DNA of 64,000 bases from Candidatus Latescibacterota bacterium (GCA_029941565.1 JAPYRN010000019.1:4228-68227); one strand, 5' to 3'; shown: positions 18,496 to 35,553, counted from the stretch's first letter. Numbers and translations: made by a program. Notes: a model not told the origin generated them from the letters alone.

Positions 18496-19515
18496 GTGCG
18501 CCTTGCCATCAGTCTGGGATTGATGGCGGCTTTCCTCTACTGGGCATTTGGTGACATCAAAGCGGGCTCGCTGTGGGCGGCAACCACCGGCGTTTCGGGA
18601 TGGTGGCTGGGCGCGGCGGTGGTCACGATCCTCATCACCGCAGTGCTGCGCGCCTGGCGCTGGAATGTCCTGCTGCGGCCCGTTGCCCCCAACGTCACGC
18701 TCGTCGATGCAACGTTGGCATTGTGCATTGGCTATGCGGTCAACCTCGTCAGCCCCATCCCGCGCGGTGGCGAGGCAGCCCGCGCCTTGAGCTTGCGGTG
18801 GACCCGGGGCGCGAACATCAGCGCCGTCGTTGGCACCATCGTCGTGGAACGCGTCATCGACATGCTCTGGCTGCTGCTCTTCATCGCCGTCTCGGCTGCT
18901 CTTCTTCCCGGGCAGATCGAGCAGCTCTTCCCCTGGATGCGCGCGGCAACGATGATAACTCTCGCCCTCGCGATTCTGGCCGTCGCCGGTATGGTTGTCG
19001 TGTCCTTCTACAAGGATCGTGGTGTCGCCTTCGTCCACCGCCTTCTCGCCCACCTGTCGGAACGACTGGCGCAGACCGTCGCCGACCTGTTGTCACAATT
19101 TATCCACGGCTTGGTCGCATTGCGGACGCCATCTGCCTATCTGGAGATTCTGCTCAGTTCCCTGCTGCTCAATGCGGGATACATTCTTATCACCTACTTC
19201 TCCTTCGCCGCCTTCAACTTTCAGCATAGTCCTTGGCACCTGGGTGGCGAAGCGGCGCTGGTAGTCATGGCGGTCTCATCGATCGGCTTCGTGCTGCCCG
19301 CCCAGGGAGGGATCGGCACCTATCACTTCTTTTATGGGACCTCCCTGAACAAACTGTTTGCCATTCCCCAGGCATCGGCTATGGCATGTGCCACCGTCGT
19401 GCATGCGGTTTCGAGTTTGACCTACTTCGTTGTGGGCGCCCCCGCCCTGTTGCTGCTGCGCCACCGTCACGGCAAACGTGGCACTCTCAAGGAAGAACTC
19501 GAGCAGGCCTCCTAA
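18496..19515 (+). CDS. Membrane protein, lysylphosphatidylglycerol-synthase TM-region / flippase-like (UPF0104) family
   Basis: 339 aa with a GTG start and about 8 TM segments. The N-terminal pattern WWLGAAVVTILITAVLRAWRWNVLLRPV is characteristic of this family as I recall it. Confidence 0.65.
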   Translation: MRLAISLGLMAAFLYWAFGDIKAGSLWAATTGVSGWWLGAAVVTILITAVLRAWRWNVLLRPVAPNVTLVDATLALCIGYAVNLVSPIPRGGEAARALSLRWTRGANISAVVGTIVVERVIDMLWLLLFIAVSAALLPGQIEQLFPWMRAATMITLALAILAVAGMVVVSFYKDRGVAFVHRLLAHLSERLAQTVADLLSQFIHGLVALRTPSAYLEILLSSLLLNAGYILITYFSFAAFNFQHSPWHLGGEAALVVMAVSSIGFVLPAQGGIGTYHFFYGTSLNKLFAIPQASAMACATVVHAVSSLTYFVVGAPALLLLRHRHGKRGTLKEELEQAS

Positions 19516-19531: not shown

Positions 19532-22231
19532 TTAGTATTGCAGCGCAGATACGGCTTTGCTGACCATGGCCAGGGCAGCGCAGAACATGCCGATCAGCGA
19601 CATGCCGACGCCGAAACCGACGGCGAGCACCATCGCGTATCGACGCCATTCCTGCTTGCCATAACGCTTCCAGAAATAGAACCGAGCCAACAAGGCACCG
19701 AGGATCTGCGGCAGCAGATTGTGCGGGATGCCGAGCACACTCTGTACATACCCCCAGATGAGAAACACGGGCATCCCCAGGAAAGACATGGAGAAGTACA
19801 CGAACAGGCCAAAGCCGCCGCCGATGAGGATGATCGGCCACTTCCAGCCTTTCAGTGGATGGCGAATATCCTCATCGACCGCACCGTCGCCATCGTCATC
19901 ACGATTGTTGACGAGCTCCTCATCGATGCGGCCATCCCCGTCATCGTCACGCCCGTCGCCCGTGTAGGTCAGGTCACGCCACAACGTCTCGAACAGCAAT
20001 GGCCGATCCGCCGACCTCTGCAGAAACTCGCCATCGAAGGTGATGAGGCGGTCCACTTCGAAGAAGAAGTCGACCGAATCCGCAGCCGTCCCGGCAATGG
20101 CTCGAAAATTCGGATTCGCCGTGACCACAACGATTCCCGGCTCGGGCCACACTCTCTGTACCGTCGTCACATCTTCCACGGGTGGGCCTCGAAGACTGTC
20201 CCTTTTGGCCGCTGATTGGCGAGCGATGTCCAGCGCCACCAGCATTGCGCCCGGTACTTCTTCGGGCACCTTGCCATCACCAAAATTCGTGTAGAAGTGC
20301 CCGACGTCCGACCACGCACCATACTGCCGTTTGTTGGGGTCAGGGATCTCGACGTCCAGCGTCGCCTTCACGCGCCAGTACCACCACTGCTCATCCTGTA
20401 GATTGGATGGACTCCAGACCGCCTCTCCCGGTGATACGAGAGCGCCCTCCACCTCCTCCCCGCCGCGCCACATTCGGCTATACATCGTACTCGAGAAAAA
20501 CAGGGCTCGGTCGAAGGCCTGCAGCGGCCACATGAGTTGTGCGTATGGATAACTCTCTGACGGGATCGGTCCCATGCGCCAGAGGAAACTCCAGTACATC
20601 AGGCTGACGACGAAGACGATGGGCAACATGAAGAGCTCCGCCTTCAGCAGACTCGTAAAGCGCATGCCCGTGAGTTCGACGACTCGAAAACCCTCTGCGT
20701 GTCCGCCATAGTTGCGTGTCGGAAATGGCACGAACCAGATGTCGACGCCACGGTAACCGGTGAGGAAGATGATCGCTTCATTGATGTATGGAATCGACAC
20801 TTCTCTGCCGATGAGGCCATCAAGTCGTGCCGACACGAAGGACATGATCGGCGCGTAGATGAAGGCGATGCCGAAGAACAAGACCAGCAGCCCCGTGGTC
20901 ACCAGCGTCGGAAAGAGCGTCTTGGCGAGCACGATCGGGTAGACGGCAGCGACGGAAAAAAGGATGACACAGATCCAGAGATTGAAGTCGCCACGACCGA
21001 GGTGTTTGATACAATATCCCCGCACCTCGGAGTGGGAATTACAGCCCTCGTGCTGACAGGTGTCCGGGTAGGTGCGCTCGTCACCACGCAGCGAGTCCCG
21101 CACCTGTAGACGCCGTTGGCGTGCCGTCGTCAGCAACTGATAGAAACTGATGACGGTGACGGCAAGGGTGATGCCGATGGAGAAGGCACGCCAGAAATCG
21201 ATCCCCGTCACGATCTGTGTTCTGATCGTATCCATGCCCGAGGACCAGCTGGGCAGCAGCCCGGCATCATATAGGAATGGGCTCGCAAAGGTGTGAGCCA
21301 TGACCCCACAGAAAGAACCTACGACACCCCAGAATGGCATCAGCAGGCCACCGAAGATGATGCCAAGATTGAGTGTGATCCCCAACGGCGTTGCCGGCAG
21401 CAGGTTGCCAAAATAGGGTGTCAGGTCCCAGAACGGGATGGGAATGAGGGATACCCTGGCGGCGGCACCACCAATGACTTCGGTGATCGTGGGAATCCCC
21501 ACGTAGAGCATGCCAAAGACGGCGCCGATGACACCCCCAACGGCGAAGACCGGCCATTTCCAGGTCTCCTCTTCGTCGCCACTTTCTTCGGCCAGAGCCA
21601 TGGCCGACAGGGCCGACATGGGCGCCGTCGGGAAGGGCAGGCGTTCGCGATCGGAGGTCAGGCGAAAGAGCAGGTAGCCACTGGTAAACCAGGTGATACG
21701 CCCGACGATGGTGCCCGACACGAGCAGGACCATGGGCCACAGCCAGTCCCGATGCAGGAAGGTACGAGCCGCCAGCGCCGGTGAGTCAGGAGATGGCACC
21801 CACCACCACGGCAACAGCCGCGCGACGCCAAATTGCGCCGCCTCGGCGGAGCGCACGAAATACTGACGGAATAGCAGATCGAGGAAGGCGCCCTCTTCCC
21901 TGGCGACCAATGCCGAAGCGACATAGACGAGCAGGTATATCTCCTGTCGCCGGAGAGAGGTGAAGGAACGTTTGGCGACTTCCAGGAACAGGATCACGGT
22001 CACCCACTGTGCCGCCGCACCGATGGATCCACCCGTGACGAGGCCGAGATACATCTCTCCCGGGGTCATGATCAGCGAAATGAACAACACGCCGATCACC
22101 GTACGCAGGGTGAATCCCTCTTCGAATCGCTCTGGAGGTTCCAGCAGCGACCGGTACTCCTCGACCTCCTCCCATTGCTTGCGCCGCAGTCGCCGGCGCC
22201 AACCAAACAAGCCGCGTTCGGACTCAGCCAT
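19532..22231 (-). CDS. System gene C: 899-aa polytopic membrane protein with an OPT-like N-terminal core, a Cys/His knuckle loop, and a ~210-aa insert carrying two DxDxDG-type acidic loops
   Basis: Uninterrupted 899-aa ORF starting 12 nt after the stop of gene B. The N-terminal FTLRTVIGVLFISLIMTPGEMYLGLVTGGSIGAAAQW resembles the first TM pair of OPT-family transporters. CQHEGCNSHSEVRGYCIKH lies at aa 392-410. GDGRDDDGDGRIDEELVNNRDDDGDGAVDEDI lies at aa 758-789. The C-terminal motif ARFYFWKRYGKQEWRRY is shared with gene A. Confidence 0.85.
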   Translation of the reverse strand: MAESERGLFGWRRRLRRKQWEEVEEYRSLLEPPERFEEGFTLRTVIGVLFISLIMTPGEMYLGLVTGGSIGAAAQWVTVILFLEVAKRSFTSLRRQEIYLLVYVASALVAREEGAFLDLLFRQYFVRSAEAAQFGVARLLPWWWVPSPDSPALAARTFLHRDWLWPMVLLVSGTIVGRITWFTSGYLLFRLTSDRERLPFPTAPMSALSAMALAEESGDEEETWKWPVFAVGGVIGAVFGMLYVGIPTITEVIGGAAARVSLIPIPFWDLTPYFGNLLPATPLGITLNLGIIFGGLLMPFWGVVGSFCGVMAHTFASPFLYDAGLLPSWSSGMDTIRTQIVTGIDFWRAFSIGITLAVTVISFYQLLTTARQRRLQVRDSLRGDERTYPDTCQHEGCNSHSEVRGYCIKHLGRGDFNLWICVILFSVAAVYPIVLAKTLFPTLVTTGLLVLFFGIAFIYAPIMSFVSARLDGLIGREVSIPYINEAIIFLTGYRGVDIWFVPFPTRNYGGHAEGFRVVELTGMRFTSLLKAELFMLPIVFVVSLMYWSFLWRMGPIPSESYPYAQLMWPLQAFDRALFFSSTMYSRMWRGGEEVEGALVSPGEAVWSPSNLQDEQWWYWRVKATLDVEIPDPNKRQYGAWSDVGHFYTNFGDGKVPEEVPGAMLVALDIARQSAAKRDSLRGPPVEDVTTVQRVWPEPGIVVVTANPNFRAIAGTAADSVDFFFEVDRLITFDGEFLQRSADRPLLFETLWRDLTYTGDGRDDDGDGRIDEELVNNRDDDGDGAVDEDIRHPLKGWKWPIILIGGGFGLFVYFSMSFLGMPVFLIWGYVQSVLGIPHNLLPQILGALLARFYFWKRYGKQEWRRYAMVLAVGFGVGMSLIGMFCAALAMVSKAVSALQY

Positions 22232-22243
22232 CGATCACACTTT

Positions 22244-25200
22244 TCACGAGCCCTCCGAAGCCATGGAGAAGATCTCGTCGCCGGCTTTGATCATGTCCAT
22301 GGCGATCTCACTGTGATACTTCTTCGACGCCTCATCGAGGGTATGCCAGATGAGGAACTCCTTGCGCAGGTGGTTGACGAACCCTCCATTCACCCGTTGC
22401 CAGTAGGTGTCCTGGCCACTCAGACGTTGAATGAAGACCTCGACGGCGAAGGCACCACGCGTCGAACTTGCAGCGCACTCGATCTGCACGAACTGGCTCA
22501 CACCCATGTCAAATGGCGCCAGCCATAGAAGGAGCTGCACCGCATACTCCAACCTCCCCGTGTCGTCTGTCTCGCACACAACACGCACCTTGTCAGCATA
22601 GAAGTCCCCGATCGACTCCTCGCCATAGGCCTGGAAAAAGCTGGCAAGAAAACCGCACAACCCCTCTACCTCTTTCTCTGACACCATGAAGGGGAAGGAG
22701 AATTCCCAACGGTCCCCATCGGGTGGCGGCGGGCGCCACCGACGTACGGTGTCCGGTACCGCCGAGCGAGCCGCCACCCGTGCCGGATAAATCGTCGATA
22801 GCAGGACGACGCCCATCACCATCAATGCCGACATGATCGCAGCCAGGGAGGAATAGTTGAGATTCATGCCCCCAAGCCAGCCGAAATGGACGAGTGCTTT
22901 TCCCAGCCCCTGGCCCAACAGATACCCCATGGTGACACCGATGACGGCATAGACACAGGCCTCGGCGACAAACAACAGAGCAATGTGCATCGGCGCCAGA
23001 CCAACCGATGAATAGATCCCGATCTCGCGAAAACGTTCGTACACGGCGCCCATCATGGCATTGAGAACGATGAGAGACGCGATCAGCATCGGCACGATCA
23101 GTGCCGCCATACCCTCCACAGAGGTCACACCGAGTGAAGTAAAGGAGGAGACGACGATCTCGCCGTTCCCCGGGTCTCGAAGGCCTGCAAACAAGGTGCC
23201 GGAAATGCGTAGGAGAAAGTCTTCGATGAGCGTCTCGGCGTCGGCGTCTTCGTCAAAGCGCACCGCCACGGAACGCAGTCCGCCGAAAAGCTCCTGCAAC
23301 GTCCCATAGGGCAGGATGAGGACATTCTCTGCCGACAGATGTACGAAGGGGCGTACCTCGTAGGCCTGCGCCTCCTCCACAACGACCATCTGCGCCGAGG
23401 CGACGGGTCCAAGGGCGGCGTTGCTCGACATTTGAAAATCAGCCGGTGTCAGTGGCTCGTCATCAAGATCATGAACGTCACTGAATCTCTCCGCATCGAA
23501 CACACCCGCTACGGTGAATCGTTTACCAAAAATCTGCACGGTCGCCGAACCGACGTCATCAGGGCGGATACCGAGGGTGGCGGCCATCTCACCTGAGAGC
23601 AGACACGCCACCTCGTCGTCGTCAACAAACCACCGGCCCCACAACAAGCTGTTGGCGGCACCGGTGACATCCTTCTCCCCCACGGTCAACCCCAACAGAC
23701 CGGTGGCGCGGACACTGATGCTGTCGTGCCGAACATCGGTAAACTTCTTCTCCTCATCGTCGTAGGCGATATACCAATTGCGCGGTGCCACGACGCCCTC
23801 ATCGCCGAAGTGTGACCTGGCGTATTCCAGCGTTGACGGTGACAACTCCCCCCAGCCTCGGTCACGAATGAGGACCCCTTCATAGGGGCCCTCGTGATCG
23901 AGGGAGAACACGAGGAAACGCACATCCGGGCGAAAGGAGGTGAAGGACAGAACCGTGAAGGTCAACAATGTCAACGTCAGCAGCGTCAGAGCCGTACGCA
24001 ACCGTCGTCTGCGCATATTCGAGATGCCGAGGATGAACGCAGTGTAGGCGGCGCTGACGCGACTGATGTCGGTCTGGTGAATCTTGGCCTGCTCCGCCTG
24101 GTATTCGCGCAGAAACCGGTTGAAGCGACTCGTCACCATCACCAGAACGAAGACGGCCATGGCCATGATCGCGAAGGCGAGCAGGATGATGAGGGGATGG
24201 GCGATATCGAAGGCGGGATGCACCTGAGAGATCAACGCCCAGATCAGCAACAGCAAGCCGAGGAAGCCGGCGATCTGCCAGCGCACATCGGAGGATGCGA
24301 ACAACAGCCGTTCACCGAAGAATGCCGTTGGAATCACCAGGGCGAGGAAGAAGACGATGCCACGGATCACGTCGTTCAGGGTGCCCACGACTTCCGGATA
24401 GGCCAGCATGGTGACGCCGAGACCGGCCCGTACTTCAGCGATGTATTCTTCCCAGTGCAGCGAGTCGTAGGCGGTCTGCCCCGCCTGCAGGTGATCTCGG
24501 CCAGCTTCGTGCAGGCGGCTGAGACGTTGGTTTTCGATGGCATGACGACGCATCGTCGCCAGGCGTGCGTCGTTCAATCTCCACATGTCTCGCAGGGCGT
24601 GGATGTCGGCTGGCATCACGTCGTTGTTCAACAGATCGTAGCCGCTGCCCTTGGCCTCGTCCTCATTCTCTCCGCCAGGACTGTTGATCAACAGCAACGA
24701 GCCGAAGAGCATCTTCAGGGCCCCGCCCTGTCGGCCGCCCTCGCGAGAAGAGAAAACGACGCAGAGATTGCTGCTCATGCTGCCGCCGAAGCTGTAACCA
24801 AACTGGCGTGGCGCGATGCCACCGGGATCGATCAGCGTGAGTTTTCTCAGTCCCACAAGAAGATTGGGGTTTGTCAGGCCATAAAGCGTGCGCCCCACCG
24901 CCGGAAACATTACGAGGGTCCGGGTCTCCTGGTTCCACCGTATGCTCCAGTTCAGACGTCCGGATGGCGTCGGGGAGCCATGGAACTTCTGCGCTCTCAC
25001 ACTCAGATCCGGAGCGTAGGTAATCTCCCCCGTCTCCCGTTCCATGGCGTACGCTGTCAGTGCCTCCCCGCCGACCGTCAATCCAGGGACCAGTACCTCC
25101 CCCTTGTCATCGGTGAGGTGGTATTTCGCCAGGTGCACACCCTTGTGGCTGCCGGCGCCGATAATCACTAAGGCGTCATCGATCTGGCGATCGGGGGTCT

Positions 25201-26740
25201 GACTCCGACGTGGAAAGGCACGTAGCCTGACTTTGTGGGTCCGCAATTCATCCTTGAGCACCGGAGAAAAATCCTCCAGTCCCTGGAATAGCGCCGTGTC
25301 CGCAAAGGATCGACTCAGGATGCCGTTGAGGAAGCTCGACTGCCGGTGCAGATTGTCCATATCGACGCGCGCCGGCGTGTCGAGTGGTGTATTGACCGGA
25401 AAGCGTGCATCATGGATGGTGACAAAGGCGAGAGCCACTTGCCCCGCCGCCATCGCCATCTCGGAGTCAACGCTAACCCCGTCGGGGACGAAGGTCGACC
25501 AATCCATGCCTCGAATCGGACTGATGCCGTTGACCATGGCCTGCTCCGGATCACGTCCCTGGTCGGTGGCGACCTGTTGGGCGTATGCGGTAAAGCGTCG
25601 ACCGAAGGGGACGAAGAAACGCTTCAGGTCGAAGCTGAAGGTGTTGTTCCAGATGCCGACCTGGTCCGTCTTTGTCGACAGATCGAGGCTGATGAAGAGA
25701 TTGGGATGCAGCGGCTCTTCCATACGTTTGGCATAAAAGTCCGAGGCACGGGCATGCCGATCGAGAAAGTCGACGGCGCCACTCAGTGCCTGGAAATGAG
25801 CCCCGGCGAAGAGCAGTGTGATGTTACGCTCCGGGGGATGCTGGCGCAGATGGTGGGCCAATTCCAGTAGCGCCGCCGCACTGGAGGCTACCTCCGCGGA
25901 TGGCGCCAGGGAGGGTGCGATCGAAATTCCATCGTAATAGGCTTCGACGATGATTCGCTGTGACGACAGGACCGAATCGGCGGCGGCAGCGGGCACATCA
26001 ATCCAGATATTCCACGCCGGTCTCTCAACCCAGTCCATGCGCGAGTGCAGCTGTACGGCCAATTCCTCCCCATCGGCCAATCGTCGGCGCAGACGGTCGC
26101 CGTCCTTGCTGCCAACCCAGAAGCGCGGCACGTCTACGGGAGCAAAGAGATACTTGTCGATGGACTGTCGATAGGAGGTATCCTCCGGTTCGATGAAGAG
26201 GATCGCCCGCGCCCCCAAGCCGGCGAGGCGGACCCAGTGATCCCAGGAGTTGAATTCCATGAGCACGATGCGGCCATCGATGGCGCGACCGTCGAAGTCG
26301 GCATATTCACCGCCACCCGCCCAGGTTAACGGCGCCTCTAATCCTCCAGGAGGTACCGTCGTCGTCCGTGGACCATTCGGCCACAACCCGAAGAGCTCGA
26401 CACTCTCACCCCATTCCTCGATGTGGAGACGACTGGCGCCGATTTCGACCGGGACCGTTACCGGAAAACTTTCTCGGCGAACGGGGCCGCCCAGGTCCAG
26501 AGCCTGCAGTTGCGCTTCGAGCCAGTCTGCAACAAGGGCAGTCCCTGGCTGCCCCGTCATGCGGGAATCGTGGGAGGCCAGATACTCAATGCTGCTGCGC
26601 AGCCGCTGCTTGCTGTCGGCCATGGTGAGCAGATCGGGACCACCAGCGCCGGCAGGCAGACACCTCAGGGCGACACTTATGCAGACCAGAAAACCGGTCT
26701 GACGCAACATATATAGGCTCTTCTTCTTCATCGACGCCAT
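22244..26740 (-). CDS. System gene B: ~1498-aa fusion of a signal anchor, a PA-domain/M28-like ectodomain (ligands substituted), a beta-rich linker, 3 TM segments, an FtsX/MacB-type permease module, and an unrecognised C-terminal cytoplasmic domain
   Basis: ORF 22244..26806. The likely start is ATG 26740 (MASMKKKSLYMLRQTGFLVCISVAL), 1 nt after the gene A stop. It has an M28-like scaffold (IEYLASHDSRMTGQPG...IIVEAYYDGIS...APSAEVASSAAALLELAHHL...LLFAGAHFQALSGAVDFL) with an inserted PA-like domain. The FtsX-type TM1 is MRRRRLRTALTLLTLTLLTFTVLSF, followed by a large ectodomain. The FtsX TM2-4 signature is LIVLNAMMGAVYERFREIGIYSSVGLAPMHIALLFVAEACVYAVIGVTMGYLLG. Confidence 0.85.
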   Translation of the reverse strand: MASMKKKSLYMLRQTGFLVCISVALRCLPAGAGGPDLLTMADSKQRLRSSIEYLASHDSRMTGQPGTALVADWLEAQLQALDLGGPVRRESFPVTVPVEIGASRLHIEEWGESVELFGLWPNGPRTTTVPPGGLEAPLTWAGGGEYADFDGRAIDGRIVLMEFNSWDHWVRLAGLGARAILFIEPEDTSYRQSIDKYLFAPVDVPRFWVGSKDGDRLRRRLADGEELAVQLHSRMDWVERPAWNIWIDVPAAAADSVLSSQRIIVEAYYDGISIAPSLAPSAEVASSAAALLELAHHLRQHPPERNITLLFAGAHFQALSGAVDFLDRHARASDFYAKRMEEPLHPNLFISLDLSTKTDQVGIWNNTFSFDLKRFFVPFGRRFTAYAQQVATDQGRDPEQAMVNGISPIRGMDWSTFVPDGVSVDSEMAMAAGQVALAFVTIHDARFPVNTPLDTPARVDMDNLHRQSSFLNGILSRSFADTALFQGLEDFSPVLKDELRTHKVRLRAFPRRSQTPDRQIDDALVIIGAGSHKGVHLAKYHLTDDKGEVLVPGLTVGGEALTAYAMERETGEITYAPDLSVRAQKFHGSPTPSGRLNWSIRWNQETRTLVMFPAVGRTLYGLTNPNLLVGLRKLTLIDPGGIAPRQFGYSFGGSMSSNLCVVFSSREGGRQGGALKMLFGSLLLINSPGGENEDEAKGSGYDLLNNDVMPADIHALRDMWRLNDARLATMRRHAIENQRLSRLHEAGRDHLQAGQTAYDSLHWEEYIAEVRAGLGVTMLAYPEVVGTLNDVIRGIVFFLALVIPTAFFGERLLFASSDVRWQIAGFLGLLLLIWALISQVHPAFDIAHPLIILLAFAIMAMAVFVLVMVTSRFNRFLREYQAEQAKIHQTDISRVSAAYTAFILGISNMRRRRLRTALTLLTLTLLTFTVLSFTSFRPDVRFLVFSLDHEGPYEGVLIRDRGWGELSPSTLEYARSHFGDEGVVAPRNWYIAYDDEEKKFTDVRHDSISVRATGLLGLTVGEKDVTGAANSLLWGRWFVDDDEVACLLSGEMAATLGIRPDDVGSATVQIFGKRFTVAGVFDAERFSDVHDLDDEPLTPADFQMSSNAALGPVASAQMVVVEEAQAYEVRPFVHLSAENVLILPYGTLQELFGGLRSVAVRFDEDADAETLIEDFLLRISGTLFAGLRDPGNGEIVVSSFTSLGVTSVEGMAALIVPMLIASLIVLNAMMGAVYERFREIGIYSSVGLAPMHIALLFVAEACVYAVIGVTMGYLLGQGLGKALVHFGWLGGMNLNYSSLAAIMSALMVMGVVLLSTIYPARVAARSAVPDTVRRWRPPPPDGDRWEFSFPFMVSEKEVEGLCGFLASFFQAYGEESIGDFYADKVRVVCETDDTGRLEYAVQLLLWLAPFDMGVSQFVQIECAASSTRGAFAVEVFIQRLSGQDTYWQRVNGGFVNHLRKEFLIWHTLDEASKKYHSEIAMDMIKAGDEIFSMASEGS

Positions 26741-26741
26741 G

Positions 26742-28898
26742 TCATATCCAGAAGATCGGATTGCCCACTTTGCCAGTAAAGTAATCGACGATGAGCCAGA
26801 GACCATTGCATATCGTCTGACCGGCGATCAAGCCGAGGAAAAATCGCTGGCTGTGCCGATACGCGGTGGCGCCACCGTAACGCAGAACAACACGCTTGAT
26901 GAGCCACGCGAGAAAAACATTGAACCAGACGAAGTTCATCATCTGGTTGGCGCCAATGGGAAAGCCGAGAGGATGCAGTGGCCACCAAGGTAGTCGTTGG
27001 CGCAGCCACATCATGGTACTCATCACGACAGCCCCGCCAGCGAAGAAGCCCATTCCCGGCCAATACGTGTCCTCGATTTCGAGATTGCGCAACGCCTGAT
27101 TGTAGGTGTCGGCGGGCAGGCCCTTAAAAAACCAGCCATTCAGATTGATCCCCCCATGCCGGTAGGACATGTGGAAAATCATCCACAGTGATCCCGCAAT
27201 GCCGATGAAGAGTGCCAGGATCATGGCCCAGAAAACGATGCGCCGATTTCTCGGTTCCATCTCCTCGATCATCTTCAGCGCATTCGTCGCCGTCGCCATG
27301 ACAAATACGCGAATATCTGCAGCCCAGACATGGGCGAGGGACAGATTGACAACTCCAGTAGGTCCCACCAGGCCTGCCCCCATGCTGTGCACGACGAGAT
27401 CACTGGCAATCATCGGCGAGCGCACCGCCGCCAGCCCCGCCTCGGCGACGATACGGGTGACGCCAAGAAAGATGAGTATCGCCAGCAGAATGAAGAGGGC
27501 GGCAACCCACAGGGGGGTCCCCATGAGCCACAACCACAACGACATGACGATGATTCCACCAAGCAAACCGGTGACGGCGCCCCGATACGGCAGGATCTCA
27601 TCGGCATCAGAAATCTCGGGGGCCAGTCCCAGGGCTTTGGCGAATACAGCTCGATAATGTTCGCGACCCACCCATAGACCGATGAGGACCATCGCCAACA
27701 GCGCGCCAACTCCCTGGTACCCAAGGAAGGGATAATCCATCACTCCGAAGCTGAGCTTCTGTGTCGACTTCAGACCGGTGAGGATGAACACTTCCTTCTC
27801 CACCCGGGAGAAGAGGTGGAAGAACCAGATTCCAGCGCCGATGTTGGCATTGATAAAGTATGAAAAGCCAAGCATCGCAAAACTGATACTGATCTGTAGT
27901 GGCTGTTGCCCAAAGAATGGCAGCGCCCACTTGAGTGGCGGTACGGGCACCCCGGGAGAGTAGCGATGTAGCGCCACCAGACTACCAGCGATCAACGGCA
28001 GCGCCGCACCCATCCACATGCCCGGTTGGCGAAAGAAACCGTTGACGATGTTGTCGGAACTCTCCGATCGGATCATAGACAAGCCGACCTGGGCGATCGG
28101 ATAGGCGAGTCGTTCCCGCTCCATCCACTGGCGGCGCACAATGATGGCGACGCAGACCATCGTCACGTACAGGGCAAGCAGAAATACCCCCCACCAGATG
28201 AGTGGCTCCACCCAGCTTGCATACGGAATGCGATCCCCTGTCAGAGACAACCCTTCGTAGAACAACCGGCTGCCCGTGCCATCGTCCACCATCGCCTGTT
28301 CGGGCAAGTGTGGGATCAGTTTCTCCTGCCACTTGTTCTCCGGTGAGGCAAAGTAGAAAATGGCGGTGATGATCGGCAGAATCTGCTCGCTCAATCCCAT
28401 CGTACATACGGCGGAGACGATGAGTAGCATGGCATAAACGAGAACGAGCTCGGACCGATTCAGCGCCAGGCTGCTGCCGCGAACCACAAGTGGCAGATTG
28501 ATCCACGAAGTGATGACGAGAAAGCTTGTCAACAGCAGACCCGGTGAGTAAGGATCCAGGGGTGTACCCAGATACCAAGAGAACCACAGACCGGTGGCTG
28601 AGAGGGCGACTGCGACGCCAGCGAGGGGGCCACCACGGGCGACCAGCTTGAACAGGCTGTTGAGGATACCGATGAGGAACAGAAACAGGAAGATGGCGCC
28701 CGGCGTTGAGAAATCGAGGGCCATATACGAGCCCCTGATAATCATATTGCCATAGGGCGCGCCAATGGCTAGAAAGAAGGAGAGGAATCCACCGATCCAG
28801 AATGCTCGTACGGACAGTCCGTCGGCGCCGGAGCCGAGCACAGAGTCTCTGCGGGTCGCCAGGTAGCTGGAGTATGCTCGGGGGATCCCGCGTTGCAA
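26742..28898 (-). CDS. System gene A: ~718-aa polytopic membrane protein, paralogous to gene C in its C-terminal module
   Basis: ORF 26742..29066. The 5' extension would overlap the divergent peptidase gene. I prefer the TTG at 28898, which is preceded by AAGGAGG (minus strand reads aaGGAGGccaaTTG). There are more than 14 hydrophobic segments. The N-terminal LSVRAFWIGGFLSFFLAIGAPYGNMIIRG is OPT-like. The C-terminal AWLIKRVVLRYGGATAYRHSQRFFLGLIAG parallels gene C. Confidence 0.8.
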   Translation of the reverse strand: MQRGIPRAYSSYLATRRDSVLGSGADGLSVRAFWIGGFLSFFLAIGAPYGNMIIRGSYMALDFSTPGAIFLFLFLIGILNSLFKLVARGGPLAGVAVALSATGLWFSWYLGTPLDPYSPGLLLTSFLVITSWINLPLVVRGSSLALNRSELVLVYAMLLIVSAVCTMGLSEQILPIITAIFYFASPENKWQEKLIPHLPEQAMVDDGTGSRLFYEGLSLTGDRIPYASWVEPLIWWGVFLLALYVTMVCVAIIVRRQWMERERLAYPIAQVGLSMIRSESSDNIVNGFFRQPGMWMGAALPLIAGSLVALHRYSPGVPVPPLKWALPFFGQQPLQISISFAMLGFSYFINANIGAGIWFFHLFSRVEKEVFILTGLKSTQKLSFGVMDYPFLGYQGVGALLAMVLIGLWVGREHYRAVFAKALGLAPEISDADEILPYRGAVTGLLGGIIVMSLWLWLMGTPLWVAALFILLAILIFLGVTRIVAEAGLAAVRSPMIASDLVVHSMGAGLVGPTGVVNLSLAHVWAADIRVFVMATATNALKMIEEMEPRNRRIVFWAMILALFIGIAGSLWMIFHMSYRHGGINLNGWFFKGLPADTYNQALRNLEIEDTYWPGMGFFAGGAVVMSTMMWLRQRLPWWPLHPLGFPIGANQMMNFVWFNVFLAWLIKRVVLRYGGATAYRHSQRFFLGLIAGQTICNGLWLIVDYFTGKVGNPIFWI

Positions 28899-28994
28899 TT
28901 GGCCTCCTTCTTTGGGTGTCAGACAAGATACATACACCCTTCCTGACGTGGCAATCACCTTGACCGGGAAGTCGGCCTGAACTGTATTGGAAAG

Positions 28995-30152
28995 ATGTCC
29001 GAAACCTATCTTGATATCCTCCACCGCCTGCTGCCACTGCCCACCGCACCCTTTTACGAACAGCATGTTATGGCCGAGATCCTGCGTTTTGCCGCGGAGA
29101 GATCATTGCCATGCGCGGCAGACGACTTCGGCAATCTCATGCTGACAGCCGGCGGCAGTGAGGCGAAGCCAGAGCTCTGCCTGACGGCGCACATGGACCA
29201 TCCTGCGTTGGGTTTTGCGGTGCACGAATCCTCTCGCGACCTGCTCTTCGAGAGACTCGGTGGGGTTCCCTCGGCTCTTACACGAGATGCCAGAGTCCTG
29301 TTGTACGATCGCACACCGGCTGCAGGCGCCAGAGCCGTACCCGTCGGCGCCGGTTCGGTGACAAGTTTTCTTGAAGAAGGCGTGCCTGGTTCGCCAAATC
29401 CCTCCGCCCCCGCTTTCCGGGTCCGCATCGACGATGAGGTCCCGGAGGAGGGTGATCTGTTCGCAGTTTGGGACCTCACCCCCTGTGCCCTCAAGGGCGA
29501 ACAGATCGTCGGCAGAGCCTGCGACGACCTGGCGGGTGTCTGCGTCGCGCTGGCTACCATGGACTGCTGTCTTGCAGAGGGCGTTTCCCTGTCGGTCCTG
29601 CTCACCCGTGCTGAGGAGACCGGCTTCGGCGGCATGCTCGCGGCGCTTGCGGCCGATGGACTCGATCGCGAGGCAATCTATGTCAATATCGAATGCTCCT
29701 CCTGCCGCTCGGGTGCGCCCCTCGGGGCAGGACCCGTAATTCGCGTCGGCGACCGCCGCTGGATTTTTGACGCCGGTGTGACCGAAGCCCTGTGCCGTTG
29801 TGCTGCCGAACTGGCGCAAAGACTGGACGGATTCAGCGTGCAGCGCCGACTGATGGATGGTGGCGTCTGCGAGGCGACCCCACTCTCTCGTAGTGGCCGC
29901 GCCACTGGCGCAGTCGCCCTGCCACTCGACAATTATCACAACGACGGCGGGCAGCGCCTGCGGTCCGAGGCGGTGCATCTGCGGGATGCAGAAAATCTCG
30001 TCTCCCTGCTGACTGACCTGGCCCGCCAACGACGCGGTGCCAACGCCATGGTTGCCGAATCCTTGGCCACTCTCGACGACATGCTGCGGTCGCGGCATAT
30101 CTCCCAGGTCGATCGTCTACGGCGAACGACGAATCCCATGTCACAGCCATAA
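28995..30152 (+). CDS. M42/M20-fold metallopeptidase-like protein
   Basis: 385 aa. Its motif order matches the M42 aminopeptidase/endoglucanase-like family: TAHMDHPALGF, GRACDDLAGVCVAL, LTRAEETGFGG, NIECSS, GAGPVIRVGD, MDGGVCEAT, PLDNYHN. It is divergent from gene A across 96 bp. Confidence 0.65.
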   Translation: MSETYLDILHRLLPLPTAPFYEQHVMAEILRFAAERSLPCAADDFGNLMLTAGGSEAKPELCLTAHMDHPALGFAVHESSRDLLFERLGGVPSALTRDARVLLYDRTPAAGARAVPVGAGSVTSFLEEGVPGSPNPSAPAFRVRIDDEVPEEGDLFAVWDLTPCALKGEQIVGRACDDLAGVCVALATMDCCLAEGVSLSVLLTRAEETGFGGMLAALAADGLDREAIYVNIECSSCRSGAPLGAGPVIRVGDRRWIFDAGVTEALCRCAAELAQRLDGFSVQRRLMDGGVCEATPLSRSGRATGAVALPLDNYHNDGGQRLRSEAVHLRDAENLVSLLTDLARQRRGANAMVAESLATLDDMLRSRHISQVDRLRRTTNPMSQP

Positions 30153-30165
30153 CACGGAGACTCCG

Positions 30166-30936
30166 ATGATCGATGAAGTAGCTCTTGGTGAGACCGGATT
30201 GCGCGTCTCTCGTCTGTGCTTCGGCACCGGTACCCAGGGTTGGCGAGGTCGCTCCGATCAGAGCGATCTGGGTCTCGACGGACTGTCTCAGCTACTGCAC
30301 TTTGCCCATGACCTAGGTGTCACCTTCTGGGATACGGCAGATCAGTATGGCACCCACGCGCATGTGGCAAAGGCGCTGACGGAAGTCGGCCGAGACAAGG
30401 TGACGATCACAACCAAAACCGTCTCCCGTACCGCTGCAGAGGTCGAGGCAGACGTAACTCGATTCTTGCGCGAACTGCACACCGACTACATCGATATTCT
30501 GCTACTGCACTGCCTCACTGAAGCGGACTGGCCGGAGAAGATGCAGGGCCCGATGGACGTGCTCAGTCGGCTGAAAGAACAGGGCGTGATACGCGCCGTG
30601 GGCTGTTCCTGTCATGACTTCGGCGCCCTGCAGGCGTCGGCGGAGACGGACTGGACAGACACCAACCTGGTGCGCATCAACTACGCGGGAGACACCATGT
30701 GCGCAGGTCCGGAGCTCGTGCGCCCCGAAATCGACAAGATGGTAACCGCTGGCAAGGGGGTGTATGGCATGAAGGTCGTCGGTGGCGGTGGCGACCTGAC
30801 ATCGGATCCCGAAAAGGCCATACGCTACGTCTGCAACCAGACGGAGATCCACGCCCTGGTCATGGGCATGGTCAACGAAGAGCAGATCCTGGAGAATACG
30901 GGTCTCGTGAGTGACGCCGTCAGCACCTTGGCATGA
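30166..30936 (+). CDS. Aldo/keto reductase family oxidoreductase
   Basis: ORF 30037..30936. The realistic start is ATG 30166 (MIDEVALGETGLRVSRLCFGTG), preceded by GGAGA. It has AKR motifs FWDTADQYG and DILLLHC. Confidence 0.85.
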   Translation: MIDEVALGETGLRVSRLCFGTGTQGWRGRSDQSDLGLDGLSQLLHFAHDLGVTFWDTADQYGTHAHVAKALTEVGRDKVTITTKTVSRTAAEVEADVTRFLRELHTDYIDILLLHCLTEADWPEKMQGPMDVLSRLKEQGVIRAVGCSCHDFGALQASAETDWTDTNLVRINYAGDTMCAGPELVRPEIDKMVTAGKGVYGMKVVGGGGDLTSDPEKAIRYVCNQTEIHALVMGMVNEEQILENTGLVSDAVSTLA

Positions 30937-30938
30937 TC

Positions 30939-31715
30939 TCAGACCATCGTCCAGCCACCATCGACGACGAGCGTGTGTCCCGTGATCATGCTCGCCGCTG
31001 AAGAGGCAAGAAAGATGACTGGCGCCGAGATCTCCTCGGGTTCAGCAAGGTCACCACGCAACAGATTCTTGGTCTTCACCGCATCGGCAAATGCCTGGCT
31101 GTCCTGCATGGCCGCTTCCGCCATTGGCGAGCGCGTCACCGTGGGTGCCACCGCGTTGACGCGAATACCGAACTCCGCCCACTCCGCCGCCATCGTTCTG
31201 GTGAGGTTGTTCACGCCACCCTTGGCACCCGAGTAGGGTCCTCTCTCCGGCGCACCGACAACACCAGCTTGAGAGGAGATGTTGACGATATTTCCGCGGA
31301 CACCTCGAGCGATCATCTGCCTCGCCATCGACTGGCTGCAGAAGAACACATTCTTGAGATTGGCGTCAACGATTTGATCGTAGAGTTCTTCGTCGTAGTC
31401 GACGATCCGCCCAAGTTTGTTATATCCGGCATTGTTGACGAGCACATGGACATCACCGTAGTGAGATTCGACGGCGGTAAAAAAGGTCCGAATCGAAGCA
31501 ACATCGGTGACGTCGAGGGGGTGGATGAAACATTCACCACCCATGCCCTCGATTTCGATCTTCAAACTTTCCAGTTCCGTCGTCGTCCGGCTGCCCACCG
31601 CCACACGTGCCCCTGAATGAATGACATCCAGTGCGATCGTGCGCCCAATGCCCCGCCCTGCCCCGGTAACGATGACCGTCTGCCCAACCAATTCAAAACA
31701 GGTCAAATGTGACAA
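30939..31715 (-). CDS. Short-chain dehydrogenase/reductase (FabG-like SDR)
   Basis: 258 aa with TGAGRGIG (cofactor-binding motif), NNAG, and the YSGAKGG (YxxxK) catalytic motif. Confidence 0.9.
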   Translation of the reverse strand: MSHLTCFELVGQTVIVTGAGRGIGRTIALDVIHSGARVAVGSRTTTELESLKIEIEGMGGECFIHPLDVTDVASIRTFFTAVESHYGDVHVLVNNAGYNKLGRIVDYDEELYDQIVDANLKNVFFCSQSMARQMIARGVRGNIVNISSQAGVVGAPERGPYSGAKGGVNNLTRTMAAEWAEFGIRVNAVAPTVTRSPMAEAAMQDSQAFADAVKTKNLLRGDLAEPEEISAPVIFLASSAASMITGHTLVVDGGWTMV

Positions 31716-31765
31716 GCTGCCTCTCCTCTTTCATGCTATATATAGGTGCGCCTGCAGTCAGATCC

Positions 31766-32953
31766 TCATGATGCAGACATCTGCAGAGCACCTGCGGGGA
31801 ATACGGCGACACGCGCCTTCTCTCCGTGCAGGTGCTGCAACGCCGATATCATTAAATCCCATTCGCGGAACAGGGTGACGTGGGATCCATATAGTGACTC
31901 ACAGTCGAAGCGGTTTACGCCTGGGGAGAATAAGAATGTTCGCTTGCGCGGCGCACTCGGCTTGCCCCGCAACGCAGTTCCTGGTCCCAGGACGGAATGC
32001 CACCCCAAGCCCTCCGGGCAGGCGCTGATTATGACGATCGTTCCCTCTTCCACCATAGGGTCATGGGCGCAGGTATTCAACGGCACGAGGGCCAAACCGG
32101 CCTGGCACAACTCGGTATCCTTCGGGAAAGCGTTGAAGACACCGATATCGACTGATGCCGCCGGCGGCATGTCAGTGCCGTAGCGCGCCGCTCCCAGTTC
32201 GCAGCCGCGTTCGAAAGCCTGGTCGGTATCGCCGGCGACGAGATCGATAATCTCGAGCTCTTCATTGAGCAGGGGGTTGACGATATAGCCCACACCCGCC
32301 ATGCGGGCCACTTCCGCTAGATGGGGGCGAAAGGGTTCACCACGGACATGTCGGTGGTTGAGCATGATCGTCTGCTGTCCGCAGGCACCCGGAAGCAGCA
32401 ACTTGGCGCCACCGCCGAACATGCCACCGCGCGGGGTGATCATGCCCATGGCGATACGAATCTGGCAACCCATCAGGTCGCGGTTGACGAAGACGGGAAT
32501 GCCCAGACTGGAAGTGCCGAGGAATTCGAGATTTTCGTAGGCATTGTGGTTGACGACCCGATAACGATCCACCACCTCAGCGCCAACCTTCTTGACAAAA
32601 TCCTCCCGCGTCATCGGCCGATGCGCCGCCAATGCGCCGATAATCGTAATCCCCTCATCCTGAAGTCCCGCCGCAGCCAGTTCCTCGAGTACGTACGGCA
32701 GCAGTCGGAAGGCGGGCGTCGGCCGCGACAGGTCATCGACAAGGATCGCCGCCGTGGAGGCGCCGGCGGCGTACTCCCTCAAGGGGGGTGCGCCAATAGG
32801 CTCGGCCAGTACCTTGCGGATGCCGGCGTCCCCGATGTCGTCACCTCCCTGCATACGGAACGTGTCGACCTGCCAGCTACCAGGAAAGCGCAAGGTCAGC
32901 GGTTTGCTACCGTACCATGCGGCCCAGGGGACGTTGAGTTCAGTCATATCCAT
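31766..32953 (-). CDS. LarA-like (lactate racemase N-terminal domain, DUF2088) family protein
   Basis: 395 aa. It has AAILVDDLSRPTP and IIGALAAHRPMTREDF, with later His- and Gly-rich segments arranged as in nickel-pincer-dependent LarA-type racemases/epimerases. Confidence 0.75.
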   Translation of the reverse strand: MDMTELNVPWAAWYGSKPLTLRFPGSWQVDTFRMQGGDDIGDAGIRKVLAEPIGAPPLREYAAGASTAAILVDDLSRPTPAFRLLPYVLEELAAAGLQDEGITIIGALAAHRPMTREDFVKKVGAEVVDRYRVVNHNAYENLEFLGTSSLGIPVFVNRDLMGCQIRIAMGMITPRGGMFGGGAKLLLPGACGQQTIMLNHRHVRGEPFRPHLAEVARMAGVGYIVNPLLNEELEIIDLVAGDTDQAFERGCELGAARYGTDMPPAASVDIGVFNAFPKDTELCQAGLALVPLNTCAHDPMVEEGTIVIISACPEGLGWHSVLGPGTALRGKPSAPRKRTFLFSPGVNRFDCESLYGSHVTLFREWDLMISALQHLHGEKARVAVFPAGALQMSAS

Positions 32954-32956
32954 GAC

Positions 32957-33721
32957 TCAATGCAGACCCATGGCGCGTAGATTGTCGAGACTCAGCTTGA
33001 GACTGTCGAATGGATCGCGCTGGCAACGGTCCTGCTCGATGAGATACCACTCGATGTCGGCATCGCTGCACGCCGCAAGGATCGGTTCCCATTCGAGGTT
33101 GCCCTCGCCGACTTCGGCGAACAGCTGCTCGCTGCCTTTCATCGCCATGTCTTTAAGGTGCACGACGTACATACGCTCCCGTAGCTGTCGTAACCAGGTC
33201 ACTGGATTGCCACCACCGTGCTGAATCCAATACGTGTCGACTTCAAAGGAGAATGCTTCCGCGTCGCTCTCCTCAGCCAGGATCTGCAGGCCCGTGCGGT
33301 CGCCGATCCGCTCCAGTTCGAAACTATGGTTGTGATAGCTGAAGGTGAGACCCGCGTCGATCAAAGGACGCACTGCTGTCGACGCCTCCCTGGCGAACCT
33401 GGCAAAACCTGTGCTGTCGCGATACTCGGCTGGCATACCACCGATGGCGACATGCCGACAACCCCAGAGTTTGTGCTCGTCGATGACGGACTGCGGTTCG
33501 TCGCGGATCCGGTCGAAGCCGATGTGGGTCGCCACGATCTTCAATCCCGCCTCTGCGGCGACTTGCTTCAACTCCAGCGGCTCGATCGGTCCCAGCCCAG
33601 AACACTGAACCGCTTCGTAGCCCATGTCCCTGACACGGCCGAAGGTCGTGCGGATCTCTGCCGGTGTCTTGAGAAAGTCTCTGAGGGTGTAGAGCTGGGC
33701 ACCGATGACGGAGGCACTCAT
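32957..33721 (-). CDS. Sugar phosphate isomerase/epimerase (xylose-isomerase-like TIM barrel)
   Basis: 254 aa. It has GAQLYTLRDFL...GYEAVQ...LKIVATHIGF...FSYHNHSFE...VHLKD, typical of this family. Confidence 0.8.
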   Translation of the reverse strand: MSASVIGAQLYTLRDFLKTPAEIRTTFGRVRDMGYEAVQCSGLGPIEPLELKQVAAEAGLKIVATHIGFDRIRDEPQSVIDEHKLWGCRHVAIGGMPAEYRDSTGFARFAREASTAVRPLIDAGLTFSYHNHSFELERIGDRTGLQILAEESDAEAFSFEVDTYWIQHGGGNPVTWLRQLRERMYVVHLKDMAMKGSEQLFAEVGEGNLEWEPILAACSDADIEWYLIEQDRCQRDPFDSLKLSLDNLRAMGLH

Positions 33722-33793
33722 ACTGGGCTTCTCTCAATGAACGGGTTATTGGGAGGCATGAAGCCGAAAGCGTAGCCTATGACGCAGGTAGGG

Positions 33794-35047: not shown

Positions 35048-35094
35048 ATATTGTGTCCGGGAAGATTGCAACGAAGGACACAAGAGAGGATCTG

Positions 35095-35553
35095 ATGGGA
35101 GCCCTTGGGAAACTGCAAGAACTGGGACTGGAGTTGCCGCAACCGCCGCCACCCGCCGGGGCCTACACGCGCGCCGTGCGTAGCGGTAACCTCGTCTTCA
35201 TCTCCGGGCAGTTGCCGTTGGCCGACGGCGCCATGCTCTGCGAAGGTTCGATTGGTGAGCAGGGAGCCTCCGAGAAGGAGGGCTACGCTGCGGCGCGCCA
35301 GTGTGCTCTCAACGCACTCGGTGTGCTCGCCGCTGAAGGGCATGACCTGGATCGTCTGCGAATCGTCAGAATGACCGGATATGTCTGCAGTGCCACAGGC
35401 TTTACCGGCCAGGCCCAGATCGTCAACGGCGCCTCGGAACTGATGGCCGCCGTACTCGGCGATGCCGGAGTTCACGCCCGCGTCGCCGTAGGCGTCAGTT
35501 CCTTACCCCTCAATGCAGCGGTTGAACTTGAGGTGATTGCAGAGATAAATTGA
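35095..35553 (+). CDS. RidA/YjgF/Rid family protein
   Basis: ORF 35002..35553. The likely start is ATG 35095 (MGALGKLQELGLELPQPPPPAGAYTRAVRSGNLVFISGQLP). The C-terminus ARVAVGVSSLPLNAAVELEVIAEI is typical of the Rid fold. Confidence 0.85.
   Translation: MGALGKLQELGLELPQPPPPAGAYTRAVRSGNLVFISGQLPLADGAMLCEGSIGEQGASEKEGYAAARQCALNALGVLAAEGHDLDRLRIVRMTGYVCSATGFTGQAQIVNGASELMAAVLGDAGVHARVAVGVSSLPLNAAVELEVIAEIN

Follow-up and report, generated by a model that had tools for sequence, protein, structure and literature searches.

Does a type VII membrane module need an ATP-binding cassette (ABC) ATPase as its motor, or can another engine move it? The question is raised by the pairing of OPT-like with MacB/LolE-type proteins, as found in a three-gene operon within a 64,000-nt stretch of DNA from a Candidatus Latescibacterota bacterium (GCA_029941565.1, JAPYRN010000019.1:4228-68227; hereafter the window, in which positions are counted from the first letter). 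The operon comprises gene A (26742..28898), gene B (22244..26740), and gene C (19532..22231), all of which lie on the minus strand at the coordinates first noted and encode proteins of 718, 1498, and 899 amino acids (aa), respectively. Protein B is a giant MacB/LolE-type membrane protein without a nucleotide-binding domain, whereas A and C are related to the OPT superfamily, with C being a divergent polytopic member that carries a large extracytoplasmic insertion. Proteins of the MacB, LolCDE, and FtsEX type are ATP-driven mechanical devices whose transmembrane (TM) helices carry no substrate and instead pass movement to a periplasmic domain, and characterized OPT proteins are stand-alone proton-coupled importers. 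The A-B-C combination is real and conserved and represents a widespread new architecture assembled from known folds, which is apparently undescribed. OPT-like and MacB/LolE-type proteins occur as obligatory pairs, and in some cases as fusions, across hundreds of genomes of several little-studied phyla, mostly with no ATPase gene close by. Literature searches on the function of DUF6785/DUF6784, on FtsX together with M28 in Latescibacteria, on orphan FtsX permeases, and on CARF_m8/LolE_TM found nothing relevant, and no published description of an OPT-like/MacB-like pairing was found.

Gene Organization and Conservation

The three genes are tightly packed, and the gaps of 1 and 12 nt given in an earlier note on this DNA, which had been made from the sequence alone, proved exact by open reading frame (ORF) listing and sequence reading. 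The stop codon of A (TGA, 26742-26744) is separated by 1 nt from the start codon of B (ATG, 26740), and that of B (TGA, 22244-22246) by 12 nt from the start codon of C (ATG, 22231). The longest mechanical ORF of A reaches ATG 29066, which would produce a 72-nt overlap with a divergent M42 gene, and an alternative start is provided by TTG 28898, which is preceded by a GGAGG-type Shine-Dalgarno sequence (GAAGGAGG, 28903-28910, by sequence reading). Because of this Shine-Dalgarno sequence, the ortholog length of 718-721 aa, and the lack of overlap with the gene at 28995, TTG 28898 is the better supported start of A and the one that the earlier note had chosen. Public gene calls start A at ATG 29066, yielding a 774-aa protein (P0241, 99% identical).

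Genomes were scanned for relatives of B with the invariant motif QVHPAF-IAHP (aa 839-849 of B) as the search pattern, which returned 336 loci at one genome per species; the census given here covers the best 80 of them, analyzed with local hidden Markov models (HMMs). All 80 derive from Latescibacterota-type metagenome-assembled genomes, some of which are labeled Gemmatimonadetes or Handelsmanbacteria, and single chromosomes bear up to three paralogous B loci; OZ241362.1, OZ252098.1, and OZ244897.1 are examples of complete Latescibacterota chromosomes with all three genes. The arrangement A-B-C is present in 35 of the 80 loci and A-A-B-C in five; B-C occurs in 10 loci (five of them truncated upstream), A-B in 12, and a B::A gene fusion in eight, with three additional probable fusions, while the remainder display B-A, B-C-A, and similar arrangements. 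A adjoins B or is fused to its C-terminus in 69 loci, and C is present in 54. The recurrent pairs are A-B (including the fusions) and B-C, and many loci possess just one OPT-like partner. In one locus (L004), both junctions show a 4-nt overlap of start and stop codons, as does the A-B junction of another (L002), in which the B-C overlap amounts to 17 nt. Among the 120 best hits, identity to the proteins of the window does not fall below 55% for A, 47% for B, and 66% for C, the orthologs of which are the most conserved of the three. These data support the notion that A, B, and C constitute a conserved, translationally coupled unit; the self-contained trio proposed in the earlier note is thus retained as a unit but is not invariant, as the pairs recur separately.

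The B::A fusion proteins (~2100 aa) contain full-length B, including its C-terminal tail, joined to A from residue ~19-31. Such fusions are a classical sign of a physical complex of A and B and place the N-terminus of A in the cytoplasm. The neighbors of the fusion loci (a TonB-dependent receptor, FG-GAP/ASPIC, PhyH, and type IX secretion system cargo) were considered as a clue to function and set aside as variable and inconsistent.

The B-C pair extends well beyond Latescibacterota. A metagenome scan seeded with distant C-like proteins (40-50% identity to C, ~640 aa, without its insertion) yielded 80 loci, 52 of which have a full-length B-like gene directly upstream of the C-like gene; the others are mostly truncated contigs, and at least four contain the C-like gene alone. 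Exact-sequence look-ups identified two of the B-C metagenome loci as Caldisericota and Omnitrophota. All-against-all clustering of the neighbors in these 80 loci detected no further conserved partner besides a four-gene ATPase module, which is described below. B-C adjacency is kept across phyla while all other neighbors change, and the rearranged orders B-C-A, B-A-C, and C-A-B still keep the genes together.

Domain Architecture of Protein B

B was described in the earlier note as a PA/M28-like ectodomain joined to an FtsX/MacB-type permease module, and both parts are borne out by profile comparison. The MacB/LolE-type module (aa ~905-1328, 22757..24028, minus strand) consists of an elbow helix, TM1, a periplasmic core (aa ~937-1207), and TM2-TM4. 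It matches Pfam FtsX (8.6e-12, 45.6 bits against a threshold of 25.5, aa 1212-1325) and MacB_PCD (4e-6, 27.7 bits against 27, aa 916-1101), and the PDB sequence matches of B are MacB, YtrF, LolC, and LolF. The periplasmic core was modeled by AlphaFold2 (AF2) with a predicted local distance difference test (pLDDT) score above 90; Foldseek ranks MacB (2.7e-8), LolCDE, and 5xu1 highest for B and aligns the core with crystal structures of the MacB periplasmic domain at E 8e-6 and a TM-score of 0.53-0.60. Between TM2 and TM3, on the predicted cytoplasmic side, lies the coupling-helix motif MGAVYERFREIGIYSSVGLAPMHI (aa 1229-1252, 22985..23056, minus strand) with the invariant residues E1235, R1236, I1240, Y1243, and G1247-P1250. 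Its ERxxEIG...G portion, YERFREIGIYSSVGLAP, is invariant among orthologs and conserved in all clades. In MacB-type transporters, the coupling helix is the site at which the ATPase docks, as established by MacB and LolCDE structures.

B therefore shares with MacB, LolCDE, and FtsEX the four-helix FtsX-type TM module, the periplasmic core between TM1 and TM2, the elbow helix, and the ERxxEIG motif. Unlike in these systems, no ATPase is fused to B, adjacent to it, or present in the window; B possesses three additional TM helices, an N-terminal ectodomain of ~750 aa, and a cytoplasmic tail of ~170 aa; and its partners are OPT-superfamily proteins instead of a membrane-fusion protein, lipoprotein, or amidase activator. 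Its scores against the NCBIfam models are all far below the cut-offs (28.2 bits against 966 for MacB, 17.6 against 473 for LolC, and 18.8 against 250 for FtsX). B is also distinct from the acidobacterial duplicated orphan permeases (ADOP, TIGR03434), which are FtsX-domain permeases without an adjacent ABC ATPase. Both are orphan FtsX permeases, but ADOP has two FtsX domains and neither an M28/PA ectodomain nor OPT partners, whereas B has a single FtsX domain and scores 14.6 bits against the TIGR03434 cut-off of 622.3.

The N-terminus of B is a putative signal peptide or signal anchor of predicted topology, MASMKKKSLYMLRQTGFLVCISVALRCLPAGAGG (aa 1-34, 26639..26740, minus strand), with a hydropathy peak at aa 16-34. 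It is followed by the PA-domain/M28-fold ectodomain (aa ~45-470, 25331..26608, minus strand), which is predicted to be periplasmic. PA-domain M28 aminopeptidases are recovered by the B profile (2ek8, 8e-13; YwaD, 5.7e-10), as are nicalin and the transferrin receptor (TfR) with weaker scores; the alignments to 2ek8 and YwaD span the PA domain and the N-terminal half of the catalytic domain, and the single B sequence scores 19.2 bits against Pfam M28, below the 21.3-bit threshold. The canonical set of co-catalytic zinc ligands (H, D, E, D, H) and the catalytic Glu is not kept in B. Here, HxD has become YYD, the bridging Asp E283, the Glu-Glu pair H315-F316, and the final DH D444-x-R446, and LDLS is present. 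These replacements recur throughout the clades examined, irrespective of phylum, with the first His kept in just two relatives; this pattern argues for a conserved non-canonical site instead of random decay, possibly a novel binding or catalytic center. As a PA plus M28 fold without canonical zinc ligands on a membrane machine, B resembles TfR and nicalin and, conceptually, EnvC with FtsEX. It differs from the inactive M28-fold proteins TfR and nicalin in that its replacement residues are conserved across phyla and the domain is fused in cis to a MacB-type module.

The remaining part of the ectodomain (aa ~471-790, 24371..25330, minus strand) is conserved among orthologs and has no Pfam match at E<=10 and no PDB match. 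Three extra TM helices (aa 791-876, 24113..24370, minus strand), predicted by hydropathy and as AF2 helices, lie N-terminal of the MacB-type module and contain the QVHPAF-IAHP motif, which is conserved as HPAF across clades. At the other end, a predicted cytoplasmic alpha/beta tail domain (aa 1330-1498, ~170 aa, 22247..22753, minus strand) was modeled by AF2 as beta-alpha-beta4-alpha2 (pLDDT ~80-86), a topology that is not Rossmann-like. Foldseek returns many weak yet consistent matches of this tail to SRPBCC/START/Bet v 1 folds (E ~5e-3 to 3e-2), which makes an SRPBCC assignment tentative, and the tail alone has no match in Pfam or PADLOC. All clades retain it, as do the B::A fusions. In one clade the B-like proteins are longer by ~200 residues (~1700 aa; L101, L104, L108, L110, and L119), and the flanks of these loci contain neither A nor the ATPase module.

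Proteins A and C as OPT-Superfamily Members

C itself belongs to no Pfam family, with no match to DUF6785/DUF6784 or OPT (PF03169) at E<=1, and has no NCBIfam match. Its family was approached through relatives: a C profile searched against 1.8 billion representative proteins retrieved 1065 clusters, and 20 of 50 sampled relatives matched Pfam OPT, several of them scoring beyond the gathering threshold along almost the entire model. For instance, P0362 (4e-198 to the C profile) scores 33.9 bits against PF03169, and P0438 (1e-67) scores 64.2 bits over model positions 99-620 of 623, both against a threshold of 25.8. Orthologs and relatives of C are named 'OPT family', 'peptide transporter', or 'OPT/YSL family transporter' in public sources. 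On this sequence evidence, C is an OPT-superfamily protein that is detectable only via intermediate relatives.

A is a polytopic membrane protein that contains DUF6785 (PF20581; 4.7e-111, 372.2 bits against a threshold of 25, aa 126-582) followed toward the C-terminus by DUF6784 (PF20580; 3.9e-30, 104.4 bits against 26.4, aa 617-710), and both domains are found in all 120 homologs listed. The earlier note had likened both proteins to the DUF6784/DUF6785 type, which is correct for A and not for C. Its broader suggestion that A and C are OPT-like held for both. In hhalign, a diverse A profile aligned to the C/OPT-like profile at 99.2% (E 9.2e-20) over 587 columns and the full length of A, a result that depends on profile breadth, as narrow A against narrow C profiles gave 1% and 14% and diverse profiles gave 87% and 99.2%. 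Given this full-length alignment, A and C both belong to the OPT superfamily and, judged by their profiles, are two very divergent paralogs within it. The C-terminal motif that the earlier note had seen in both proteins falls in aligned columns of the profile-profile alignment. No PDB sequence was matched by A, C, or the C/OPT-like profile, in single-sequence or in profile searches.

Several features distinguish C from typical family members. A zinc-finger-like motif, C-x4-C-x9-C-x2-H (aa 392-410, 21002..21058, minus strand), is located in a putatively cytoplasmic loop; C392, C397, C407, and H410 are invariant in 34 orthologs, with a weak match to Pfam Zf_WRKY19. A soluble insertion of ~210 aa (aa ~585-795, 19847..20479, minus strand), probably on the periplasmic side, includes two DDDGDG-x-(I/V)DE acidic repeats (aa 762-788) whose Asp and Gly columns are invariant and which look calcium-binding. 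In about a quarter of the sampled C orthologs, and ~40% of the best hits, two PDZ domains are situated between the acidic repeats, after residue 766. The insertion site is a hot spot, with OPT-like relatives (e.g., P0362) bearing WD40/beta-propeller or Reg_prop domains there.

Compared with the OPT/YSL family (PF03169, TC 2.A.67), the relatives of C pass the Pfam threshold, A aligns over its full length, and the E-R-L-P-(F/Y)-P motif is shared; unlike OPT/YSL proteins, neither A nor C matches PF03169 directly, and C bears the zinc-finger-like loop as well as the ~210-aa insertion, in which acidic repeats or PDZ domains are located. In contrast to characterized OPT proteins, which act alone, A and C are coupled or fused to a MacB-type protein. 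DUF6785-type genes are expanded around B-C at one locus (L061, 1627-19256) and also at L007, L009-L011, L053, and L056; these expansions comprise tandem A-A upstream and divergent A' copies (HMM score ~170-185 vs. ~1200), with up to four A-like genes at one locus (A'-A'-B-C-A-A).

ATPase Genes in and around the Operon

No Walker A motif (G-x4-GK[ST]) was found in A, B, or C, and no LSGGQ-type ABC signature was found in the six-frame translation of the window, in which the sole UvrA-like ORF is located at 60381-62720 (minus strand). These motif scans agree with the earlier note, which had reported no P-loop in the three proteins and no ABC ATPase in the window other than a UvrA-like one. In addition, no MacB-type ATPase was found when ~10 kb around B was inspected in 85 Latescibacterota loci. 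As the loci stem from numerous separate assemblies, some of them closed long-read chromosomes, faulty assembly does not explain why an ATPase gene is missing. An ABC ORF in L053 was examined as a partner and rejected, being of the unrelated MalK/TOBE type. ABC-like ORFs in L054, L055, L057, L060, and L073 match the module ATPase described next only at 1e-26 to 1e-48, compared with <=1e-118 for orthologs, and do not look like partners of B.

The situation is different in one part of the family. In 31 of the 80 loci of other phyla, B-C is contiguous with a same-strand, tightly packed four-gene module, located downstream of C (e.g., L157, 11935-14816) or upstream of A/B (L086, 183-2956, and L087). 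Its genes encode a Cys/His-rich protein X (~300-340 aa) with C135, C138, H168, C299, and C329 invariant and H330 nearly so, for which no match was found in Pfam, NCBIfam, or PDB; a predicted PqqD/RRE-like peptide-binding protein; a mini-FtsX (206-211 aa) with four TM helices and an FtsX domain but without a periplasmic domain; and a LolD-type ATPase (NCBIfam LolD at 1e-67 to 1e-70, followed by MacB, DevA, and FtsE). The operon of this related clade, with its LolD-type ATPase and its small additional FtsX subunit, is reminiscent of LolCDE, and the fact that the B-C core is operonic with a type VII ABC engine there suggests a LolC/LolE-like heterodimer of B and mini-FtsX. The PqqD-like chaperone beside such an engine hints at a ribosomal-peptide substrate.

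In a neighbor-joining tree of B, the module bearers form one clade, and about five other clades, including Latescibacterota, lack a module in cis. No homologs of the module ATPase, mini-FtsX, PqqD-like protein, or Cys-rich protein were found in the window or in the 85 Latescibacterota loci (~22 kb each). The statement of the earlier note that there is no ATPase is accordingly true of the operon, the window, and ~10 kb around B in the 85 loci, and in cis for most B clades, but not for the whole family, as one related clade has a LolD-type ATPase in cis. For the lineage of this window, a type VII engine for B is either encoded elsewhere or absent.

Proposed Mechanism and Alternatives

Our preferred reading, which is held tentatively and with less than even confidence, is that A, B, and C may form an undescribed complex in which periplasmic peptide capture is coupled to OPT-type translocation. 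The three proteins would be subunits of one inner-membrane assembly, with A tethered to the cytoplasmic tail of B and C translationally coupled to B. The PA/M28-fold and MacB-type periplasmic domains of B, together with the acidic-repeat/PDZ loop of C, would capture periplasmic peptides or protein termini and hand them to the OPT-like channels of A and C, which may carry them across the inner membrane by proton-motive force, as characterized OPT transporters do. ATP would not be supplied in cis in this lineage, and in the module-bearing clade B may also form a LolC/LolE-like heterodimer that is driven by ATP. The peptide theme is suggested by the M28/PA fold, the PDZ pairs, the PqqD/RRE-type protein, the OPT family membership, and the M42 neighbor.

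A number of points weigh against this proposal. Both the substrate and the direction of transport are purely inferred. Characterized MacB-type machines export, extract, or activate, and none is known to supply an importer. A cytoplasmic PqqD-like peptide binder would fit ribosomal-peptide export at least as well as import, and the retention by B of the ATPase-docking coupling-helix motif speaks for a possible requirement for ATP. For C, AF2 with 34 close orthologs gave an unusable model (pLDDT 44, predicted TM-score 0.26), and its OPT fold is predicted from sequence comparison. The M42 gene has likewise been downgraded as functional evidence: it is located divergently upstream of the operon in 42 related Latescibacterota loci and was not found at the loci of other phyla examined, and because it is limited to one phylum in which flanking housekeeping genes are conserved too, its presence may be plain synteny.

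The strongest alternative, possible although unlikely, is that the system is an ATP-driven type VII ABC machine with its engine in trans, consisting of B, a small FtsX-type subunit, and two LolD-type ATPase subunits. The moving periplasmic domains of B would then expel, extract, or process a periplasmic or outer-leaflet substrate, such as a peptide delivered by the OPT-like proteins. The clade in which B-C is joined to the LolD-type module, in two gene orders that are both tightly packed, is in line with this arrangement, as is the coupling-helix motif, whose conservation is the same in mini-FtsX and in B clades regardless of whether an ATPase lies in cis. Mini-FtsX, lacking a periplasmic domain, also looks incomplete on its own. 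On the other hand, the module is confined to one B clade, with ~five others having none in cis, and no homologs of it occur in the 64-kb window or the 85 Latescibacterota loci.

An ATPase-free engine is more doubtful still. We consider it improbable that B with A and/or C is a MacB-type mechanotransmission machine without an ABC ATPase, in which an OPT-like cycle would move the pseudo-peptidase and core domains, and the specific version in which an OPT-like partner replaces the ATPase, with a cycle of A and/or C (powered by proton-motive force or substrate) moving the periplasmic domains of B via its tail and TM helices, is quite improbable. Its appeal derives from the position of A next to, or fused with, the cytoplasmic C-terminus of B in 69/80 Latescibacterota loci, from the prevalence of B clades that have no cis ATPase, and from the mutual absence of A and the module: A was not found in 10/10 module-bearing loci with an adequate upstream flank, nor the module in 6/6 A-bearing loci of other phyla with an adequate downstream flank. 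This complementarity is weak evidence because the module occurs in a single B clade, so that it represents approximately one evolutionary event on the B tree, and there are exceptions, with L086 possessing both A and the module and L092 an A-like ORF far upstream of B. Such an engine is also without precedent, and an ATPase would be the simpler reason for the conservation of the coupling helix. There is a modest chance that A-B-C embodies a new energy-coupling mode. If so, the ATPase-free machine would represent such a mode for the type VII fold, and the ATP-driven version of the sister clade would be an alternative engine.

Doubtful, too, is the idea that B is a sensor or regulator, namely a ligand-gated or signaling envelope protein whose pseudo-peptidase binds or controls a periplasmic hydrolase or ligand, by analogy with the control of EnvC by FtsEX or with the CARF-LolE_TM proteins listed as defense candidates. 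The degenerate yet conserved M28 site follows the pseudoenzyme pattern of EnvC, TfR, and nicalin, and the tail is weakly similar to ligand-binding SRPBCC folds. Moreover, the strongest family match of the membrane module of B, far better than that of Pfam FtsX, is the PADLOC model CARF_m8--CARF_LolE_TM (of the CARF_m8--LolE_TM models PDLC01991/01990), which aligns profile positions 87-602 of 810 to B aa 805-1376 at 8.2e-55; B-like proteins of other phyla match it at 7e-48 to 4e-62. The CARF_m8 models are said to derive from the 2020 CARF census of Makarova et al. Another model, CARF_m8--CARF_Beta-galactosidase_LolE_TM, implies the same plan as B, with a large ectodomain, a LolE-like module, and a cytoplasmic C-terminal region, and in some B relatives the tail aligns partly to the region after LolE_TM in PDLC01991. 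However, the C-terminal ~130-200 profile positions, presumably CARF, are unmatched in all six proteins (B and the B-like proteins). No CARF domain is demonstrable in B, the tail of which is unmatched alone and modeled with a topology that is not Rossmann-like, and no defense genes are nearby.

With respect to control of the FtsEX-EnvC type, neither FtsE nor a conserved periplasmic partner gene was found in 165 loci, and the pseudo-peptidase of B is fused in cis, unlike the separate periplasmic coiled-coil activator of FtsEX-EnvC. The surroundings of B contain no conserved hydrolase, sigma/anti-sigma, kinase, or CRISPR/CBASS gene, and the obligatory partners of B are transporter-like. A role in anti-phage defense is not supported: besides the LolE_TM model, there is no PADLOC match for A or C and no defense gene nearby. 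As to the claim of the earlier note that no characterized system has this composition, no published description was found, but the LolE-like module of B is already represented in PADLOC (8e-55).

Finally, functional independence of A, B, and C, held together by inherited gene order, is already disfavored and very improbable: the wider neighborhood (M42, SDR, LarN, AP endonuclease-like, and FtsH) is also conserved within the phylum, which makes synteny alone weak evidence, but the B::A gene fusions, the 1-12 nt spacing or overlaps between genes, the B-C adjacency across phyla despite changed neighbors, and the cohesion of rearranged orders all speak against it.

Genomic Neighborhood

The operon is bounded on both sides by plus-strand genes, in agreement with the earlier note. 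A gene for an M42/M20-type aminopeptidase (28995..30152; Pfam Peptidase_M42 at 1.3e-18) diverges from the operon on the A side, and an LPG_synthase_TM gene (18496..19515) flanks it on the C side. The divergent intergenic region between the TTG start of A and the gene at 28995 is 96 nt long and contains candidate expression signals for the operon (28903..28954, minus strand), namely the Shine-Dalgarno sequence GAAGGAGG (28903-28910) and, at 28925-28954, a promoter-like -35/-10 pair. The latter is weak, with 9/12 consensus positions, and such sites are no more numerous than in shuffled sequence.

On the A side, the block consisting of the M42 peptidase, aldo/keto reductase, SDR, LarA-N-like, AP-endonuclease-2-like, MFS, and FtsH genes (window 29000-37700) is collinear with positions 1-7800 of the 'Handelsmanbacteria' contig L002. 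Downstream of C, both this contig and L004 have a cluster of DnaJ, YbjN-like, PspA/IM30, amine oxidase, spermine-synthase-like, DUF4178, and DUF350 genes, which is missing from the window, where C abuts LPG_synthase_TM. Other transporters encoded in the window are unrelated to the operon and include a TRAP DctM subunit (9250-10509, plus strand) and a CitMHS/Na-sulfate-type symporter (12721-14130, plus strand), with the gene for an enolase-superfamily enzyme (10533-11741, plus strand) between them. The UvrA-like ORF encodes 779 aa, which is shorter than canonical UvrA; Pfam detects just the UvrA interaction domain in it (2.1e-11), and a Walker A sequence, GSSGTGKT, is located near 61163. The largest unannotated ORF of the window outside the operon (50605-53598, plus strand) encodes 997 aa without a Pfam family at E<=1e-4.

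Biological Significance

If the pairing of OPT-like and MacB/LolE-type proteins is functional, it would constitute a new transporter architecture. DUF6785 and DUF6784 are newly assigned to the OPT superfamily by the profile comparisons above, and the conserved non-canonical M28 site of B may be a new binding or catalytic center. Latescibacterota are thought to live on polymers and proteins, and an abundant peptide-handling envelope machine, with as many as three paralogous loci in one genome, would be relevant to the ecology of these organisms.

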